Shown here in pieces: positions 1 through 61,224 of a stretch of DNA of 64,000 nucleotides. The position numbers were made by a program, and so were the translations under genes. Location: contig JBBTUX010000002.1 in NCBI GenBank assembly GCA_038063555.1, positions 6,806 through 70,805 on the forward strand. Direction: 5' to 3'. Each line of letters begins with the position of its first letter. Position 1 is the first letter of the stretch. Under the pieces are notes generated by a model, which saw only the letters and a list, made by a program, of their open reading frames with translations, was not told the origin of the DNA and did not search any database. Source of the stretch: Patescibacteria group bacterium. Its GTDB lineage: Bacteria > Patescibacteriota > Minisyncoccia > Phycocordibacterales > JAKFXT01.

Positions 1-470
1 AAGTAAAAAGTGTACTTTCAGATTTTTCTGGAACTTGGAGACGCTTTGAATACAAAGGAAAAATGAAAAGTGGAGCCATAATTTATGATGATTACGCGCA
101 TCACCCTGCAGAAATAGCCGCGACATTATCTGGCGCTCGCGAAGCATTTCCAGACAAAAAAATTACTATTATTTTTCAACCCCATTTATATTCTCGTACC
201 AAACTTTTATTAAATGATTTTGCTGAAAGTTTATCCAAAGCGGATTATGCAATTTTGGCTGACATATATGCGGCGCGAGAAAAACCAGATGAAACAATTT
301 CTTCAAAAATTTTAGCCGAAAAAATCAAGGGAAAAAATAAAAAAGTGAGATATTTTCCCGATTTTGGTGAAATAGAGAAATATCTTTCAGAAAATGCGGT
401 AGAAGGGGATTTGCTTATAACCATGGGCGCAGGCGATATTTACAAAGTTGGGGAGGAGCTACTTGGTTAA
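1..470 (+). CDS. murC: UDP-N-acetylmuramate--L-alanine ligase, C-terminal fragment (5' end truncated by window edge)
   Basis: The open frame runs from the window edge with no stop. Translation gives ...GTWRRFEYKGK...GAIIYDDYAHHPAEI..., matching the Mur ligase C-terminal domain and the MurC signatures RRFE and DDYAHHP. Confidence 0.75.
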   Translation, partial: VKSVLSDFSGTWRRFEYKGKMKSGAIIYDDYAHHPAEIAATLSGAREAFPDKKITIIFQPHLYSRTKLLLNDFAESLSKADYAILADIYAAREKPDETISSKILAEKIKGKNKKVRYFPDFGEIEKYLSENAVEGDLLITMGAGDIYKVGEELLG

Positions 471-480
471 TTTGCATTTG

Positions 481-507
481 TTGCAAGTACAACTTGTCCC
501 GTATAAT
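481..507 (+). promoter_or_regulatory. Putative sigma70-like promoter for the ArsR-like gene (TTGCAA, then about 15 nt, then TATAAT at 502-507)
   Basis: A perfect TATAAT hexamer sits at 502-507, with TTGCAA 15 nt upstream. The -10 box overlaps the left arm of palindrome P1, which is an operator-like arrangement. Confidence 0.3.
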
Positions 508-543
508 CTATACCACTATTCGCTAGAATAGTGGTATAGATTA
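504..543. repeat. Palindrome P1 of family A: 18-bp arms TAATCTATACCACTATTC / GAATAGTGGTATAGATTA around the loop GCTA
   Basis: I read it directly as an inverted repeat. It shares the core ATCTATAC[C/T]ACTATTC with P2 (853-890) and P3 (4154-4197). Confidence 0.9.
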
Positions 544-566
544 CGGAGTGTGGTAATATTGAGGTT

Positions 567-833
567 ATGAATTCCAGAAAGACCGAGGTGATTACAAAAG
601 GCTTGGCTAGCCACAGACGGTTGTATATAGTTGAAATGTTATTTAAAAAACCAGAAATGTCTGTTGAAGAAATTGCCAAAGTGGCCAAGATAAGTCACAA
701 AAATGCTTCTGGCCATATTAACAAACTGACTTCTTCTGGTTTGATAATGAAACGGCATGATGGTAATTTTGTTCGTCATAAACTGACAAAACGTGGCGAA
801 ACCATTCTCAAATTCTTGAGAATATTGGAATAG
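567..833 (+). CDS. ArsR/SmtB-like winged-helix HTH transcriptional regulator (88 aa)
   Basis: At 88 aa it has an ...ASHRRLYIVEML... recognition-helix region typical of the ArsR family. It is about 50% identical to the paralog at 60192-60461. Its 3' end encodes FLRILE* over a short palindrome (ATTCTCAA/TTGAGAAT at 804-823). Confidence 0.6.
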   Translation: MNSRKTEVITKGLASHRRLYIVEMLFKKPEMSVEEIAKVAKISHKNASGHINKLTSSGLIMKRHDGNFVRHKLTKRGETILKFLRILE

Positions 834-852
834 TGTAAAAAATAGAAGCGTA

Positions 853-890
853 CATCTATACTACTATTCGCGCGAATAGTAGTATAGATG
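853..890. repeat. Palindrome P2 of family A: a perfect 38-bp palindrome CATCTATACTACTATTCG|CGAATAGTAGTATAGATG
   Basis: I read it directly. It lies between the ArsR-like gene and the DGR target gene. Confidence 0.9.
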
Positions 891-973
891 TTACAGAAAA
901 ATGGTAAGAAAAAAGTAAGAATAAGAAAAAAAAGCTGATGGCAGACCACTGTCTTTTTTGCTAAAGTAAGGTC

Positions 974-2989
974 ATGGAAAAGTTTGAAGGTGATTTTCTT
1001 AAGGATAAATACTGGGGCAATAAAGAATTCCGGGAAGCCGCGGGGGTTTCGGCTCGCCGCACGAAAAAGCGTGAAAGCGAGAATGTGCCCAATACGCCAC
1101 CTGAGCGCATTGAGAACTACCTCGATCGATTTACCGAGATAACCGATCGGGAAGACCCTGAAAAACGCGAGCGCGGCATTTCTGCCATTGAGCGACTCGT
1201 GGAGAAGAAATACATCATCAAGGCAGAAAATATAACCGATGAATATATAAAAAATGTATTGCTCGGCAATGAAGCCGAACTTCTCGGATACGAGCGGGAA
1301 GATGTAAAAGACGAGCAGATACGAAAAACCGTGCTTGATTCGCTGGAGAATAAAATTCATTCGCCTCTCTCTACATATAGAGTGCCGATTGAACTTCGAG
1401 AATCATTGGAGAATATGATTATTACCGACCAGAAAGGGAGGATGAAGCAGTGGCTCGATTACCTTACAGGAGAAGAAGCGCGTCATGCTCCGGTTGCACT
1501 TCGTTATTGGGCATTCGCCGAAATGCTTAAACAGGGAGATTACGATCCTGTTAGCGGAGAATACAACAAACGCACTAACGCAACAGTTGCAATTTTCCCC
1601 GAACTCGACCAACAAGCCCTTGCCCTTGTTTTTGATGAAGTGGAACGACGAAGAACCGGCAAAACATCTGCACTTTCTACGGGCGATGATGCGCGACAGG
1701 CCGAATTGCGAGATCTGCTTCAACATGAGAATTTTGGTAAGCTCTATGCGTTCATGCAGGAGCATGTTCGTTCGCTAAAATTACCGACCGAGCGTCTTGT
1801 CATCACCGAGGGAGGATGGAAACTCTTTTCAAAAGATTCTTCACCATCTGATTTAACCGCTCCGCTCCAAGGGTATCAGACTAAATGGTGCATTGCGGGA
1901 GAAGGCCACGCTACCAGCTATCTGGAAACTGGTGATGTCTGGATTTATTTTTCAAAAGATGTGGACGGACAAAATACTATCCCTCGCGCGTGCGTTATAG
2001 ATAACAAAGAACACGGTATTACCGAAGTCCGAGGCATCATTTTCAATGAAGAAGTTAAACAACATCTTGACGACTACATCACGCCGGTAGTTGACGCAAA
2101 ACTCAAAGATATGGAGGGTGGTGAAAAATGGGCGGACAAAATGGATGATATGAAGAAGTTGCGTGAACTGCACTTCAAATATTTGCAAAAGGAACCATTG
2201 AATAAAAACGATTTAACTTTCTTGTATGAGATTGACCGACCAATACAGGAATCCGGATATGGTAAAGACCCGAGAATAGAAGAGCTGAAAAAAGGCAGAA
2301 ACAGACAAGAGGACATCAAAACAATGTGTGATTGTAAGGAAGAGTTTATTGCCACAGATTTTATTGATATAAAAGAAATCACACAAGTGTTTTGTGAAGA
2401 TACAGGAGATAAAATAACTTTCTTTGATTTTCGGGAAGGACAAAACAAAGAGAAACTTCTGCCGCTTATGGAATTGGCGAAAAGAATAAAAGAAACTGGA
2501 AGGGGAGCACGACCAGACATGTCATTTGAGGGAGGAATAGTAAATATAAATGTGCCAAAAGAAAAACTAAAGGACTTGCCGACGGCCATTAAGTCATTCG
2601 AAGAGGCAGACAATAATTCACCCTCGTCTATTTGGGAAGAATTAAAAAAAATGCCATTTGCTACATTGGAGCAATCTTCTTTGGAACTTATTGTTCTTTC
2701 TTACAATAAAGACGTAGAAACAAGAAAATCATCAGAAAAAATAGTAGAAGATATGGATAAGCTAGGACTTAGACCAGCTACCTTTGGGGAATTAATTACT
2801 CTTGGCATAATTAAGCCCGTTTTTAACAAGAAAAACGAATATATTGTTGCTCTCGGCACAAAAGCTACTCTGGACGGCGGTGTTCGTGTCTCGGTCTTGG
2901 TCTGGTACGGTGATAAGCGTCTTCTGGATGGCGACGGGTGGACGATCGAGTGGGGCGAGCTTAGCCGTTTCCTTTGTCTCCGCAAATAG
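974..2989 (+). CDS. DGR target protein (671 aa) with a C-terminal variable region
   Basis: This long ORF lies immediately upstream of the TR and RT. Its last roughly 40 codons (VR 2868-2985) align without gaps to the TR, with conserved Trp and Gly scaffold codons (LDGGVRVSVLVWYGDKRLLDGDGWTIEWGELSRFLCLRK versus TR-frame LDGDIHVPNLDWNDGERSLNRNIWDNEWDDRNRFVCLRN). The N-terminal half is GC-richer than the C-terminal half. I recognised no other domain. Confidence 0.6.
   Translation: MEKFEGDFLKDKYWGNKEFREAAGVSARRTKKRESENVPNTPPERIENYLDRFTEITDREDPEKRERGISAIERLVEKKYIIKAENITDEYIKNVLLGNEAELLGYEREDVKDEQIRKTVLDSLENKIHSPLSTYRVPIELRESLENMIITDQKGRMKQWLDYLTGEEARHAPVALRYWAFAEMLKQGDYDPVSGEYNKRTNATVAIFPELDQQALALVFDEVERRRTGKTSALSTGDDARQAELRDLLQHENFGKLYAFMQEHVRSLKLPTERLVITEGGWKLFSKDSSPSDLTAPLQGYQTKWCIAGEGHATSYLETGDVWIYFSKDVDGQNTIPRACVIDNKEHGITEVRGIIFNEEVKQHLDDYITPVVDAKLKDMEGGEKWADKMDDMKKLRELHFKYLQKEPLNKNDLTFLYEIDRPIQESGYGKDPRIEELKKGRNRQEDIKTMCDCKEEFIATDFIDIKEITQVFCEDTGDKITFFDFREGQNKEKLLPLMELAKRIKETGRGARPDMSFEGGIVNINVPKEKLKDLPTAIKSFEEADNNSPSSIWEELKKMPFATLEQSSLELIVLSYNKDVETRKSSEKIVEDMDKLGLRPATFGELITLGIIKPVFNKKNEYIVALGTKATLDGGVRVSVLVWYGDKRLLDGDGWTIEWGELSRFLCLRK
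2868..2985 (+). repeat. DGR variable region (VR), 118 bp, at the 3' end of the target gene
   Basis: It aligns without gaps to 3288-3405, with identical 12-nt 5' and 8-nt 3' ends (CTCTGGACGGCG ... CTCCGCAA). TR AAY codons correspond to diversified VR codons (V, Y, D, D, I, S, K). About 42 of 118 positions mismatch, and only about half of those sit at TR adenines. Confidence 0.55.
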
Positions 2990-3287
2990 ATTTTTGAATT
3001 TTTGTCACTTTGCTTATGATTTAGATATTTTGATTTTGTTCTTTTCTTTTTTTAAATTAAAATAATAATGAGAGTAGATAATGAGTGCGCGGATAAATTC
3101 TTCGCAACATCGAAATCAGTAGAACACAGATCGGAATTTTTGCGTGATAAGTGCGTGAAAAGTGTGTCTGTGTTTTCTTTAAAAAAAGAAATCTACTTGG
3201 CGCATATACGTCTGGCATTATGATGCCGACTTAAATACAATGTATGGTTGCGACTATATGTGGTGGATTGCATGTGTATATGCGAAA

Positions 3288-3405
3288 CTCTGGACGGCGA
3301 TATTCATGTCCCGAACTTGGATTGGAATGACGGTGAGCGTAGTTTGAACAGGAACATCTGGGACAATGAGTGGGATGATAGGAATCGATTTGTTTGCCTC
3401 CGCAA
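3288..3405 (+). repeat. DGR template region (TR), 118 bp, adenine/AAY-rich, non-coding
   Basis: In the VR reading frame it carries 7 Asn (AAC/AAT) codons in about 39 codons. It lies 85 nt upstream of the RT. The ORF-track ORF 3248-3463 covers it and is probably not a real protein. Confidence 0.55.
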
Positions 3406-3469
3406 TTTAATTTCTTTCTCCGCCAGATATTTATTTTGGTGGAGTTTTCTTTTGACTCTCTAATTCCAA

Positions 3470-4183
3470 TTGTTTAATCAATTGGTTATGCCAGTAATTA
3501 GCAAAGCAAGTGTTAGAGACAGAGTTGTTCATAGGTTGGTTTATAACGCTCTTTATTATTACTTTGACTATAAATTTATTTATGATTCTTATAGTTGTCG
3601 AATTGGAAAAGGTACACACAAGGCACAGGCGAGATTCAGAAGTTTTGTTAATAAGGTTAGCAAAAATTATACGGCCTCCTGTTTTGTTTTAAAATTTGAT
3701 ATCAAAAAATGTTTTGAGAGTATTGATAAAAATATACTCAAAAATATACTTTCTTTTCATATTGAGGATAAAGGACTAAAAAGAATTATATTTTCTATAA
3801 TTGATAGTTTTGGAACGGGAATTCCTCTCGGGAATTTGACATCACAATTATTCTTGAATATTTATCTCCACGAGCTTGATTGGTATGTAAAACAATTTTG
3901 GGGGTGTAAATATTACCTGCGATATGCTGACGATATAATCATTATCTCCACCAACAAAGAGAAATTAGAAGAACTATATGCAAATTTAGAAATTTTTCTT
4001 AAAAACAAATTGAACCTCACTACTCACAAGAAAATCATTATTAGTATTTACTCGGGAATTGATATTTTGGGGTTGGTGTTTTTCCCGCAGTATCAACGCT
4101 TGCGACGCAGTACCGAAAGAAGAATAGAAAAAAGAAATAGCAAAATATTTAAACATCATCTATACCACTATTCCATGGAATAG
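3470..4183 (+). CDS. DGR-type reverse transcriptase (237 aa; apparently shortened at both the N- and C-terminus)
   Basis: It contains the RT motifs VRDRVVH (motif 1), CRIGKGTHKA (motif 2), FDIKKCFESID, the DGR-diagnostic GIPLGNLTSQLF motif and YADDIII (motif 5). Alignment from memory to Bordetella phage Brt starts at Brt motif 1 (the first roughly 55 aa are missing) and stops about 40 aa short. The last codons lie inside palindrome P3. Confidence 0.8.
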   Translation: MFNQLVMPVISKASVRDRVVHRLVYNALYYYFDYKFIYDSYSCRIGKGTHKAQARFRSFVNKVSKNYTASCFVLKFDIKKCFESIDKNILKNILSFHIEDKGLKRIIFSIIDSFGTGIPLGNLTSQLFLNIYLHELDWYVKQFWGCKYYLRYADDIIIISTNKEKLEELYANLEIFLKNKLNLTTHKKIIISIYSGIDILGLVFFPQYQRLRRSTERRIEKRNSKIFKHHLYHYSME

Positions 4184-4197
4184 TGGTATAGATGATG
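4154..4197. repeat. Palindrome P3 of family A: a perfect 44-bp palindrome CATCATCTATACCACTATTCCA|TGGAATAGTGGTATAGATGATG
   Basis: I read it directly. It overlaps the RT stop codon (TAG at 4181-4183) and shares its core with P1 and P2. It also creates the spurious mirror ORFs ending ...LYHYSME. Confidence 0.9.
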
Positions 4198-4266
4198 TTG
4201 ACGGTAACACTGGCAATGCAATATTGTAGCCTCTCTTAACAAAAGCTTAACAAAGGATATTTTTTT

Positions 4267-4971
4267 GTGTATGGTGTTTTCATGGCTACGTTTTATATAG
4301 TGGCAACGCCGATTGGGAATCTTGAGGACATGACTTTCCGGGCGATTCGTATTTTGAAGGAGGTGGATATTATATTGTGCGAAGATACACGGGTAACACA
4401 AAAATTACTTAAACATTATGAAATTAACGATAAACAGCTTTCTACATATAACGCACAAAAAAGCTCGGTTAGTTTCAGTAAAATTAGCAATTGGATAAAA
4501 GAAGGGAAAAATTTGGCGTTAGTGACTGACGCGGGAACTCCAGGAATATCAGACCCGGGGAGTGAACTTGTGGAAAAATTAAAGAGTGAGTTTAGTAGTG
4601 AAGAGCTCAAAATTGAGCCAATACCGGGGGCTTCGGCGATTGTTGCGGCTATGTCCGCCGCAGGTATCCCTGCGGCGGAATGGACCTTTTTGGGATTTTT
4701 ACCGCACAAAAAGGGCAGGGAGACCTTGTTTAAGGAAATTGCTAAAGGAGAGAGAACTTTTGTTTTTTATGAATCCCCACACAGGATTATGAAAACTTTG
4801 GAAAAGTTGGCACAAGTAATACTTGATAATCGCAAAGTTGCGGTGTGTAAAGAATTGACCAAAATTCACGAAGAATTTGTAAGGGGGAGCGCAAAGGAAA
4901 TATTTGCTCACTTTAGAAAAAACCCCGACCGTGTCCGTGGGGAATTTGTGGTCATAGTTTCTAAATGTTAA
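4267..4971 (+). CDS. rsmI: 16S rRNA (cytidine1402-2'-O)-methyltransferase
   Basis: It has a tetrapyrrole-methylase fold N-terminus, FYIVATPIGNLEDMTFRAIRILKEVDIILCEDTR, and GISDPG. The true start is probably the M of MATFYIV at 4282. Confidence 0.75.
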   Translation: MYGVFMATFYIVATPIGNLEDMTFRAIRILKEVDIILCEDTRVTQKLLKHYEINDKQLSTYNAQKSSVSFSKISNWIKEGKNLALVTDAGTPGISDPGSELVEKLKSEFSSEELKIEPIPGASAIVAAMSAAGIPAAEWTFLGFLPHKKGRETLFKEIAKGERTFVFYESPHRIMKTLEKLAQVILDNRKVAVCKELTKIHEEFVRGSAKEIFAHFRKNPDRVRGEFVVIVSKC

Positions 4972-59511: not shown

Positions 59512-60128
59512 AAAGAATAAATGGAAAAGTTGCCGATAAAGTTGTTGAACTTGGTAAATTGGTTTTACAATTTGCAAGAGTAAATAGAATCACTCTTTAT
59601 GAGGATGGTGTTACACCAGAATCTGACACAGACCATACCGTAATGCTTTCACTTATTGCTTGTGCTGTCGCATCAGAATATAAAAAAGATTTAGATTTGG
59701 GATTAGTTGCTCAATTTGCCCTAGTTCATGATTTTGTAGAGGTTTACACGGGAGACATTCCTAATATTCATGGAAAAATGATTGATAAAAGACACTTGAA
59801 GAAAAAGGAACTTGAACAAAAAGCCTTAAAAAGATTAGAAAAAAACTTCAAAAAAGTTTTACCTTGGCTTTCAAAGACCATAAAAAAGTATGAAAAAATG
59901 GATACTAAAGAAGCCCGTTTTGTTAAGATTTTAGATAAAGCGATGCCTAAAATAACACATTCGCTTAATAAAATGAAAGCTTTAAAAATACGTGGTTTTG
60001 ACAAGAAAATGGCAGAAGATACTTTAAGAGACCAAATAATATCCATAGAAAAAAGTTATGGAAAAGACCAAAAAGAAGCGATAGACATAATGAAATTATT
60101 AGCAAAAAAATCTTTATCCGCTTTTTAA
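59508..60128 (+). CDS. HD-domain phosphohydrolase (YfbR-like 5'-deoxynucleotidase family)
   Basis: It has ...SDTDHTVMLSLIA... and ...LVHDFVEVYTGDIP..., which are the HD motifs. Its 4-nt overlap with the upstream gene makes an ATGA junction. Confidence 0.55.
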   Translation: MKRINGKVADKVVELGKLVLQFARVNRITLYEDGVTPESDTDHTVMLSLIACAVASEYKKDLDLGLVAQFALVHDFVEVYTGDIPNIHGKMIDKRHLKKKELEQKALKRLEKNFKKVLPWLSKTIKKYEKMDTKEARFVKILDKAMPKITHSLNKMKALKIRGFDKKMAEDTLRDQIISIEKSYGKDQKEAIDIMKLLAKKSLSAF

Positions 60129-60173
60129 ATTCTCTATTCCAATGTTCTCAAGAACATTGGAATAGAGAATTTT
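60127..60173. repeat. Palindrome P4 of family B: 22-bp arms AAATTCTCTATTCCAATGTTCT / AGAACATTGGAATAGAGAATTT with a 2-nt spacer
   Basis: I read it directly. It overlaps the HD-gene stop and lies 19 nt upstream of the second ArsR-like gene. Confidence 0.9.
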
Positions 60174-60191
60174 TAGTGATATTATAGAGTT

Positions 60192-60461
60192 ATGAAAAAC
60201 TTTAGGAAACTGGAAAGGGTAGTGAAAGGATTTTCCAATCACCGAAGAATTGAAATTTTAGAATTGTTAAAAAGAAAACCGGAACTTTCCGTCGTTGAAA
60301 TTGCTGAAGAGTTGAAAATCAATTTCAAAACAGCTTCCGAGCACATAAGAAGATTGGCCATTGCTGGACTTGTAATCAAACGCTCCGAAGGTCCTGCTGT
60401 CCGTCACAAACTCACCCCCACCGGAATCTCTATTCTAATGTTCTTAAGAACATTAGAATAG
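60192..60461 (+). CDS. ArsR/SmtB-like winged-helix HTH transcriptional regulator, a paralog of 567-833
   Basis: At 89 aa it carries ...SNHRRIEILELL... It is about 50% identical to the first copy. Its 3' end encodes FLRTLE* inside palindrome P5. Confidence 0.6.
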   Translation: MKNFRKLERVVKGFSNHRRIEILELLKRKPELSVVEIAEELKINFKTASEHIRRLAIAGLVIKRSEGPAVRHKLTPTGISILMFLRTLE

Positions 60462-60465
60462 AGAT
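60426..60465. repeat. Palindrome P5 of family B: a perfect 40-bp palindrome ATCTCTATTCTAATGTTCTT|AAGAACATTAGAATAGAGAT
   Basis: I read it directly. It covers the last 11 codons and the stop of the ArsR-like gene and shares its core with P4. Confidence 0.9.
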
Positions 60466-60654
60466 TTAGGAAAATAAATAATAATACTTATAAATACTTG
60501 CACGATAAACAAGAGATATGAGAAACTAGACGGAACCTGTCCCGTTAGAAGTCGCGGACACCAAAACATAATTTTATTAAATCAGTTATATCAATTATCA
60601 AAAATCATTGTAGTAAATGCGGAGTATTAATTTCCGTGTCCTACTTCTAATGGG

Positions 60655-61224
60655 ATGAATACACAAAAAGATTTTATAGTCATAGGAGTAACGGGAGAAC
60701 CCTCATCTGGAAAAGATACCTTTGCCCAAATTATTGAAGAAAAAGGATTCCACCACATTTCAGGGGGTGATTTTTTACGAGAAGAGGCTAAGAAAATAGG
60801 AGTGCCTCTTGATAGAACGAGTATAACTAACTTTGTTATGAAAATGAGAAAAGAAAAAGGTCTTCAATATCCAATGGATATTGTTATAGAAAATGTTTTT
60901 AATAACACTGTTATTTCTGGCATGAGAAATACGACTGAAGTGGATTTACTTAAAAATACGTTTGGTAATAAATTTTATATGGTTGCTGTTACGGCAACGC
61001 CAGAAATTCGGTATGAGCGTATGAAAAAGCGCGGCAGAATTGGGGATGAAGTAACGTTTGAGATCTTTAAAAAAGAAGAATCCGTAGAGAAACGTGGCGG
61101 CTCTGGTACTCATGAACTTAGTAAAGTTATAGAAAATGCAGATTATAAAATTGACAATAGTGGAAGTGGAGAAGAATTTAAAAAGAAAGTTGATGAATGG
61201 TTTAGGGGTATAATCAAAAGATGA
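60655..61224 (+). CDS. P-loop nucleotide/nucleoside kinase-like protein
   Basis: It has Walker A GVTGEPSSGKDT and is about 190 aa, a size typical of small NMP/dephospho-CoA-kinase-like enzymes. Confidence 0.4.
   Translation: MNTQKDFIVIGVTGEPSSGKDTFAQIIEEKGFHHISGGDFLREEAKKIGVPLDRTSITNFVMKMRKEKGLQYPMDIVIENVFNNTVISGMRNTTEVDLLKNTFGNKFYMVAVTATPEIRYERMKKRGRIGDEVTFEIFKKEESVEKRGGSGTHELSKVIENADYKIDNSGSGEEFKKKVDEWFRGIIKR

Follow-up and report, generated by a model that had tools for sequence, protein, structure and literature searches.

Why would the gene for a tiny DNA-binding protein lie between two long palindromes, one of which is written into its own last codons and stop codon? The question arises from a 64,000-nucleotide stretch of contig JBBTUX010000002.1 (here called the window, with positions counted from its first letter) of an uncultivated groundwater bacterium of the Patescibacteria, or Candidate Phyla Radiation (CPR). 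To our knowledge, regulators are few in CPR bacteria, and hardly any of their regulatory DNA has been defined by experiment. The gene in question, paralog 2 of two related genes in the window, encodes an 89-residue winged-helix protein of the ArsR/SmtB fold (60192-60461, forward strand; recognition helix NFKTASEHIRRL). The two palindromes that flank it, P4 and P5, are probably copies of the cognate site predicted for its product. Sequence comparison inclines us, though not strongly, to the view that the protein is an autorepressor with one operator at its promoter and a second at its stop codon, the latter serving as a roadblock or as an auxiliary site.

Two palindromes and the protein between them

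P4 spans 60127-60172 (46 bp, assigned to neither strand). Its two 22-nt arms, separated by a centre of 2 nt, are 100% complementary (AAATTCTCTATTCCAATGTTCT-CA-AGAACATTGGAATAGAGAATTT), and its 28-bp conserved core lies at 60136-60163. The 5' edge of P4 falls inside the TAA stop codon (60126-60128) of an upstream HD-domain gene, and its 3' edge stops 19 nt short of the ATG at 60192, the distance given in a preliminary description of this DNA. P5 (60425-60466, also strandless; core 60432-60459; AATCTCTATTCTAATGTTCTT/AAGAACATTAGAATAGAGATT) is a perfect palindrome that spans the final 11 codons of the gene (I-S-I-L-M-F-L-R-T-L-E), the TAG at 60459-60461 and 5 nt of 3' flank. That description placed P5 correctly over the last 11 codons and the stop, and its length needs correcting from 40 to 42 bp. 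The core that P4 and P5 were said to share is there: the two are 90% identical over 41 nt, and a C/T change in one arm is mirrored by a G/A change in the other. Exact copies of the 17-mer common to both are found only at their four arms, and allowing up to three mismatches gives 6 matches against 0.57 expected. The window contains only five long palindromes of this type, P1 to P5. The arrangement is real and non-random. Together with an AT-rich tail of about 30 nt, P4, the gene and P5 make up a unit at 60129-60496 (forward strand) that two related loci, L207 and L208, lack between their orthologous HD and kinase genes; the identical 42-mer of P5 recurs in another, L001.

The hairpins predicted for these palindromes are very stable, at -26 to -34 kcal/mol (z = -7.7 to -9.7), with -33 kcal/mol (z = -9.7) for P4 and -29.6 kcal/mol for P5. 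The stem of P4 comes directly after the stop codon of the HD gene and is itself followed directly by five T residues, so that P4 taken alone has the form of an intrinsic terminator; P5 is followed only by TTT. A general terminator reading was rejected, as U-tracts are scarcely enriched after the stems: at least five T in the next 8 nt follow only 11-16% of sites, against 3-9% in the background. A search of the whole window with Rfam at gathering thresholds returned nothing, and a permissive scan of 60050-60720 gave only meaningless miRNA-hairpin matches far below threshold.

Paralog 2 matches the Pfam ArsR family HTH_5 at 6.3e-10 (39.2 bits, cut-off 22). Its AlphaFold2 (AF2) model has a mean confidence score (pLDDT) of 89, the secondary structure H-H-H-H-E-E-H and the topology a1-a2-a3-aR-b-b-a5, and the top Foldseek matches are CadC, ArsR, HlyU, CzrA and SmtB, with TM-scores of 0.75-0.82. 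Profile and fold therefore agree in placing it in the ArsR/SmtB family. Pfam finds the winged-helix domain alone in the protein, with no catalytic or Y1 transposase domain, and defence-system libraries give nothing beyond generic winged-helix matches to Csa3/CasR domains. The residues that are invariant in the family (H17, R18, H51, K63, R64 and H72) fall in DNA-contact regions. The sequence contains no cysteine, helix alpha5 (PTGISILMFLRTLE) lacks histidine and aspartate, and no alpha3N or alpha5 metal-ligand site of the kind used by ArsR/SmtB sensors is present. Paralog 2 is most likely a small, sensor-less winged-helix dimer of the ArsR/SmtB type.

The position of P4 is that expected of an operator. 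A promoter-like element on the forward strand (60157-60185) consists of TTGGAA at 60157-60162, in the right arm of P4, a 17-nt spacer and TG-n-TATTAT, with the -10 hexamer at 60180-60185; the 13-2-13 palindrome thus overlaps the -35 hexamer of the predicted promoter. The geometry recurs in the family: at 52% of regulator-upstream sites a TAnnnT hexamer begins 14-18 nt beyond the core in the direction of the gene, compared with 14% on the far side and 8% in the background. The gap from the end of the core to the start codon is mostly 27-35 nt (28 nt in the window), a spacing that puts the likely transcription start at or beside the ATG (about 60192 here), and the regulator mRNAs are probably leaderless or nearly so throughout the family. 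Repressors of the ArsR/SmtB family recognise 12-2-12 inverted repeats located at their own promoters (PMC8790569). P4 would likewise be the primary operator over the -35 region of an extended -10 promoter, and protein bound to it would occlude the -35 hexamer and the spacer, as in classical ArsR/SmtB autorepression, and so repress its own transcription.

The resemblance to the ArsR/SmtB autorepressors (SmtB, CzrA, CadC, ArsR, HlyU, PagR) extends to fold, size and the approximately 13-2-13 site over the protein's own promoter. Unlike them, the present system has a second site at the stop codon, perfect palindromes with arms of up to 25 nt, and neither cysteines nor alpha3N/alpha5 ligands; moreover, its protein family is restricted to the CPR and lacks a curated model.

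Conservation of the bracket and of its codons

More than 1,695 clusters of homologues of paralog 2 are found at E <= 1e-3. The best 120 of these are 67-100% identical to it, and all the named ones are from Patescibacteria/CPR, including Woykebacteria, Roizmanbacteria, Levybacteria and Parcubacteria; across CPR lineages the protein is conserved at 60-89%. For 80 orthologue loci taken from GTDB species genomes, the core is present within 260 bp upstream of the gene in 78 (61 exact) and in the coding end in 77. We then counted an upstream site as the core ATTCnnnnnTTCTnnAGAAnnnnnGAAT or a subfamily variant of it, and a stop-codon site as one starting between -32 and +80 nt of the stop. Among 110 distinct family genes with enough flanking sequence, 106 have the upstream site, 103 the stop-codon site and 101 both. 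The idea of a regulator-plus-operator module, put forward in the preliminary description, is well supported on comparative grounds by this bracket and by the three or four subfamilies with apparently matching palindromes. A putative operator at the 3' end of the regulator's own gene, the place that O3 has in lacI, is thus present in 103 of the 110 genes; in paralog 2 it is the P5 core at 60432-60459, which runs into the stop codon at 60459-60461.

The coding-end site constrains the gene at the DNA level. Of 82 canonical genes, 79 match the core with at most one mismatch over a tail made up of the final nine codons, I/V-L-K-F-L-R-T/I-L-E, and the first base of the stop codon. Phenylalanine is encoded by TTC in 78 of 79 of these tails (36% in the rest of the same genes), arginine by AGA in 81 of 81 (23% elsewhere) and glutamate by GAA in 79 of 81 (63% elsewhere); of the tail leucines, the first uses CTN and the second TTR. 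These figures support the conclusion that synonymous choice in this tail is fixed by a constraint on the DNA, and they uphold the proposal that the palindrome itself encodes the conserved C-terminal peptide. In genes of diverged specificity, embedded site and peptide have decayed jointly (FLSMLG, FLRLLD, FLTTLD and FLKSLTD, each before the stop). Sixteen core positions are nearly invariant across phylum-level CPR lineages. With roughly 100 independent orthologues carrying frozen synonymous sites, the family shows clearly how a signal in the DNA can shape the end of a protein-coding sequence.

Most orthologues have only a weak quasi-palindrome at the coding end, yet with fixed core letters; that of paralog 1 forms a predicted hairpin of only -8.4 kcal/mol. 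In the clade of the window the site has become a perfect palindrome through two changes, Leu CTC to CTA and Lys AAA to Met ATG. The 3' untranslated region of this clade covaries with the upstream codons: six pairs have changed on both sides, and the observed score was reached in none of 500 shuffles.

The second gene in the window, paralog 1 (567-833, forward strand), encodes an 88-residue winged-helix protein of a rarer subfamily that is 54% identical to paralog 2 and has the recognition helix SHKNASGHINKL. Its palindromes, which like all the others are assigned to neither strand, are of a different type. P1 (504-543) lies upstream of paralog 1 and has the core TATACCACTATTC-GCTA-GAATAGTGGTATA at 509-538; P2 (852-891), a perfect 40-bp palindrome, begins 19 nt past the stop codon; and P3 (4152-4199), perfect over 48 bp, overlaps the 3' end of a reverse-transcriptase open reading frame (ORF) upstream of rsmI. 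Both types have the layout [outer pentamer]-N3-[inner TTC unit]-N4-[mirror image], with the pattern TATTC-YAA-TRTTC-TYRA-GAAYA-TTR-GAATA in P4 and P5 and TATAC-YAC-TATTC-N4-GAATA-GTR-GTATA in P1 to P3. The two types are distinguished by their centre and by about three positions in each half-site.

These differences track the protein. The helix NFKTASEHIRRL is paired with an ATTC..RTTCT-YR site, and the helix NFxNASGHINKL with a TATAC..TATTC-N4 site (P1 to P3 in the window, and in L081 and L083/L084). A further subfamily, type C (about 45% identity), pairs the helix NFKTISEHTRRL with the site ATTCYAACATTCT-GCAG, which stands upstream of the gene and again at the stop codon, where the proteins end in ..KFIxTF(SHS). 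Examples of type C were found among L085-L162, at L158:1405-1752, L111:1800-2170 and L147:12646-13071; L147 also has a canonical gene, 3.4 kb from the type-C one, and each of the two is accompanied by its own palindrome variant. Finally, in L080 the helix NFRTASDHIKKM is paired with a ..TTTCC-GC-GGAAA.. site. The recognition helix is invariant wherever the core is invariant, and helix and site change together in four cases. This covariation is strong comparative support for our inference that the protein reads the palindrome. Its cognate site would be a palindrome of about 28-34 bp, (C)TATTC-YnAnR-TTCT-YR-AGAA-YnTnR-GAATA(G). The predicted protein-site pair is testable and conserved across the CPR, and its three or four natural helix-site variants may help in decoding recognition.

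The 28-bp core ATTCNNNNNTTCTNNAGAANNNNNGAAT of the paralog-2 type has exactly three matches in the window, all on the two regulator genes: P4, P5 and 804-831. The last of these, on neither strand, matches without mismatch and is embedded in the end of the paralog 1 gene, in its final nine codons and stop (I-L-K-F-L-R-I-L-E-stop). Paralog 1 therefore bears a paralog-2-type site in its coding end, while its flanks carry its own type, P1 and P2. The preliminary description had seen a degenerate, short ATTCTCAA/TTGAGAAT palindrome at this end; a palindrome is indeed there, and it proves to be the whole core. The same description had every regulator gene preceded by and carrying its cognate palindrome, which is accurate for the bracket as such and fails for the coding end of paralog 1. 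The window contains no solo site of the paralog-2 type, every such site being on a regulator gene, so the concern that P4 and P5 might be copies of a genome-wide repeat unrelated to these genes does not apply there; other CPR contigs, however, commonly carry related solo sites.

In about 1 Mb of DNA retrieved for comparison, exact paralog-1-type cores occur at paralog-1-type genes only. The subfamily members of L081 and L083/L084 are likewise preceded by P1-type palindromes and keep the murC-regulator-rsmI order seen in the window. Since these loci come from other metagenomes, the duplication is old and not a local event; with that qualification, the earlier suggestion that the module was duplicated and has diverged is right.

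The stop-codon site is retained despite shifts in register. In type C the stop codon lies in the left arm or at the centre of the palindrome, and in L079 and L080 the site begins 10-13 nt past the stop. What is conserved is therefore the sealing of the gene between cognate sites at its promoter and at its stop codon. A search of the literature on ArsR palindromes and regulons of the CPR and on the motif strings yielded no account of the protein, the motif or the arrangement; this self-bracketing design, with an operator in the C-terminus, extends across the CPR in the sequences compared and does not seem to have been described. Some loci carry more than the two sites. Around the gene in L006 (L006:2772-3387) there are six core sites in 620 bp (three upstream, one in the coding end and two downstream), and L115 has four in 2 kb. 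The sites in L006 all carry the asymmetric half-site pair typical of the coding-end site and form an iteron-like array.

What the sites may do, and competing explanations

Two roles for the 3' site were tried and rejected. As a promoter or operator of the next gene it would be expected to have a -10 box at a fixed offset, which is seen in 17% of cases against 10% in the background, and the downstream genes are unrelated: the neighbours of 51 orthologues almost all differ, the sole recurrence being TP_methylase (rsmI) in 7 of the 51. A rigid DNA loop between the two bracket sites fares no better, as their spacings of 271-476 bp show no periodicity at 9.5-12 bp (all p > 0.07).

A third role is suggested by LacI. 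According to PMC3711431, which cites Abo et al. 2000, LacI bound to O3, an operator at the 3' end of lacI, roadblocks transcription of its own gene, and the truncated transcript leads to SsrA tagging and proteolysis. By analogy, protein bound to P5, a second site in the last codons and stop, would halt polymerases coming from its own promoter or reading through from the upstream operon. Polymerase would stop before or at the stop codon, as with LacI at O3, and the truncated non-stop transcripts would be removed by trans-translation; no transfer-messenger RNA (tmRNA) gene is present within the window, the rest of the genome lying outside that scope. Autoregulation would thereby become robust to read-through from the upstream operon, which ends only at P4. 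Such a mechanism needs the site to be at the stop codon in one register or another, which is what the family retains. That the site works as a roadblock of the O3 kind is a possibility we take seriously without counting on it. Within the same autorepressor model, P5 could instead be an auxiliary operator that raises the occupancy of P4.

The analogy has its limits. Lac O3 is a weak site, used mainly for looping to O1 of the neighbouring operon, and self-roadblocking in this style is usually treated as a peculiarity of lac. Here the fold is unrelated, conservation does not extend to the downstream gene, and the stop-codon site is as good as the promoter site and is fixed synonymously in about 100 orthologues. 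The CPR bracket suggests that a self-roadblock may be an ancient and widespread design.

Several observations weigh against an autorepressor pure and simple. The score of paralog 2 with the NCBIfam ArsR/SmtB subfamily model NF033788 (52.8) is slightly below the cut-off of 55, and the lack of an evident metal or ligand site leaves the protein with no obvious signal to respond to. The lack of helical phasing between the bracket sites weakens the rigid-loop form of the model. A sample of 100 exact core matches from metagenomes revealed 77 that are not beside a regulator gene, and these solo sites have no -10 box at a fixed offset (12% versus 11% background). Their setting implies that at most sites the protein does something other than classical promoter occlusion. 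Lastly, the palindromes are too good. Complementarity continues for at least 5 bp past the core in 30% of non-coding sites (1.3% in the control), in sequence that is not conserved, and the arms of the same site agree at 5.9 of 8 positions, compared with 4.6 of 8 between sites of one locus (p = 5e-9). Dimer symmetry alone does not explain this extended palindromy.

The genes flanking solo sites are arranged in tandem in 27 cases, convergently in 11 and divergently in 8, and 16 sites lie inside crude ORF calls; many solo sites belong to the type-C variant. A conserved regulon was considered and rejected, the neighbours of 47 solo sites being functionally unrelated. These sites flag a dispersed class of palindromes in CPR genomes, with insulator, roadblock and selfish element as candidate roles.

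Hairpin-templated (quasi-palindrome) correction might keep the palindromes perfect or extended, as might selection that favours a hairpin or cruciform. One or the other is probably behind the extended arms, including the conserved Lys to Met change in the clade of the window. The autorepressor model itself accounts for none of this; the excess palindromy, the solo sites and the absence of the block from two related loci all fall outside it.

A broader scheme is conceivable, and we offer it tentatively, as something we would sooner doubt than believe. Site and protein would be interlocked across the CPR, the site dictating the C-terminal peptide ILKFLRTLE, its codons and its stop. Promoter occlusion, together with a stop-codon roadblock that yields non-stop mRNA for trans-translation, would set the level of the protein independently of read-through, in a genome that is compact. 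Hairpin correction would keep the palindromes and would have rewritten Lys to Met, and the tens of solo palindromes per genome would be orientation-independent barriers to transcription.

Of the rival explanations, the one that survives best holds that the protein is a chromosome-organising or centromere-like binder, comparable to AspA, ParB/parS, Noc or SlmA, that marks dispersed palindromes as insulators, roadblocks or nucleoid sites; the sites at its own gene would then be one instance of these, with simple autoregulation added. As such a binder would have it, the majority of sampled sites are solo and intergenic, lack promoter geometry and show no preference for any gene orientation, and the arrays in L006 and L115 and a sensor-less protein so well conserved across CPR lineages are also in keeping with it. 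AspA of the Sulfolobus plasmid pNOB8, an ArsR-like centromere binder (PDB 5k5q), is among the sequence and fold matches; it too is a small winged-helix protein with a palindrome beside its own gene. The protein also has weak NCBIfam matches to the archaeal chromatin proteins Sul12a and Sso10a. A parS site inside spo0J, a binding site within the coding sequence of its own binder, is a further parallel; a literature search for it found nothing. However, the AspA match is weak (E ~5e-4), and the similarities to AspA and Sul12a are of the generic winged-helix kind (E ~1e-4 to 1e-5). Unlike in AspA and ParB systems, no partition ATPase or ParB partner is nearby (the neighbours in the window are genes for an HD hydrolase, a NUDIX protein, a P-loop kinase and a glycerate kinase), and no ParA-like protein is found among the 25 commonest families of the 51 downstream genes. 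Every paralog-2-type site in the window is on a regulator gene, a density that resembles a regulon and not a nucleoid. We consider this explanation unlikely.

Could the block instead be a small cassette, mobile or selfish, as the preliminary description also allowed? A unit of about 370 bp, bounded by the palindromes, would then relocate or be swapped between sites; the protein would be its DNA-recognition factor, and the solo palindromes empty or scarred sites. The near-universal bracket of like repeats suits this idea, as do the almost entirely different downstream neighbours, and the L207 genome, which lacks the block 60129-60496 between its HD and kinase genes as L208 does, holds an 89%-identical regulator at another locus, L001. 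Regulator identity is also without taxonomic structure. A test for horizontal transfer from taxon labels was uninformative, because identity is saturated at about 67% whether or not two proteins come from the same named taxon (53-80% for pairs from one taxon, 67.5% on average across taxa).

Set against this, the protein lacks any catalytic domain, and there is no recombinase among its neighbours. Compared with L207, there is no target-site duplication at 60129 or 60496, and the empty site of L207 has no solo palindrome. A transposon or miniature inverted-repeat transposable element was rejected for want of such a duplication, and because the flanks of solo sites within one contig are unrelated. 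Recent site-specific integration was rejected as well: it predicts that the left arm of P4 equals the right arm of P5, and the opposite is found, each palindrome being self-complementary and the two mutually different. The paralog-1 subfamily, moreover, keeps a stable murC-regulator-rsmI synteny. The two genomes compared are also set apart by several further multi-gene indels in this region, so the indel is compatible with mobility and does not prove it. The reciprocal comparison gave no empty site, as neither the window nor L205 contains homologues of the genes beside the L001 regulator. The layout, a gene flanked by short palindrome copies with further solo intergenic copies, also recalls repetitive extragenic palindromes and their tyrosine transposases (REP/RAYT). 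The likeness ends there, as ours is an 89-residue DNA binder without a Y1 (HUH) transposase, with three sites of each type in 64 kb and one copy in coding sequence. Overall, a mobile cassette seems improbable.

The remaining rival, that the palindromes are purely structural RNA or DNA hairpins (a terminator, an mRNA 3' stabiliser or a REP-like element) whose link to a winged-helix gene is incidental or reflects shared sequence ancestry, draws on the stable stems, the T-tract of P4 behind a stop codon and the covarying palindromy past the core, and is very improbable given that a hairpin does not require the near-invariant core letters, that the palindrome variant tracks the recognition helix of the adjacent gene, that the coding-end site is mostly a weak quasi-palindrome, that U-tracts are rare, canonical GC-rich terminators are present in the same genomes and no Rfam family matches, and that long perfect palindromes also lie between divergent genes (L021, L032).

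Observations on the surrounding DNA

The neighbourhood of paralog 1 (63-4971) shares with L081 and L083 the order murC, paralog-1-type regulator, a variable gene and rsmI (TP_methylase). In the window, the place between paralog 1 and rsmI is taken by a retroelement cassette (974-4183) that resembles a diversity-generating retroelement and is bracketed by P2 and P3. It comprises an ORF of 671 residues with a variable-repeat (VR)-like end at 2868-2992, a template-repeat (TR)-like copy at 3288-3412 and a reverse transcriptase of 237 residues (3470-4183; Pfam RVT_1, 9e-18). VR and TR differ at 45 of 125 positions, only 20 of which are TR adenines, and thus give no clean signature of activity. L081 and L083 have no reverse transcriptase at the corresponding position. 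P3 encodes the last ten codons and the stop of the reverse-transcriptase ORF (..HHLYHYSME), and as a palindrome it gives the same peptide end to a spurious ORF on the opposite strand (4168-4401). A GC-rich hairpin with an 11-bp stem (TCCGCCGCAGG TATC CCTGCGGCGGA) lies at 4654-4679, within the coding region of rsmI.

Downstream of paralog 2, the window differs from L207 by an insertion of about 115 bp at 60537-60652, with terminal inverted repeats of 13-14 nt (GTCCCGTTAGAAGT ... ACTTCTAATGGGAT). It is the only copy in the window and may be a miniature inverted-repeat element or a structured leader. The insertion occupies the leader and the 5' end of the P-loop kinase gene, where it shifts the start codon of the kinase.

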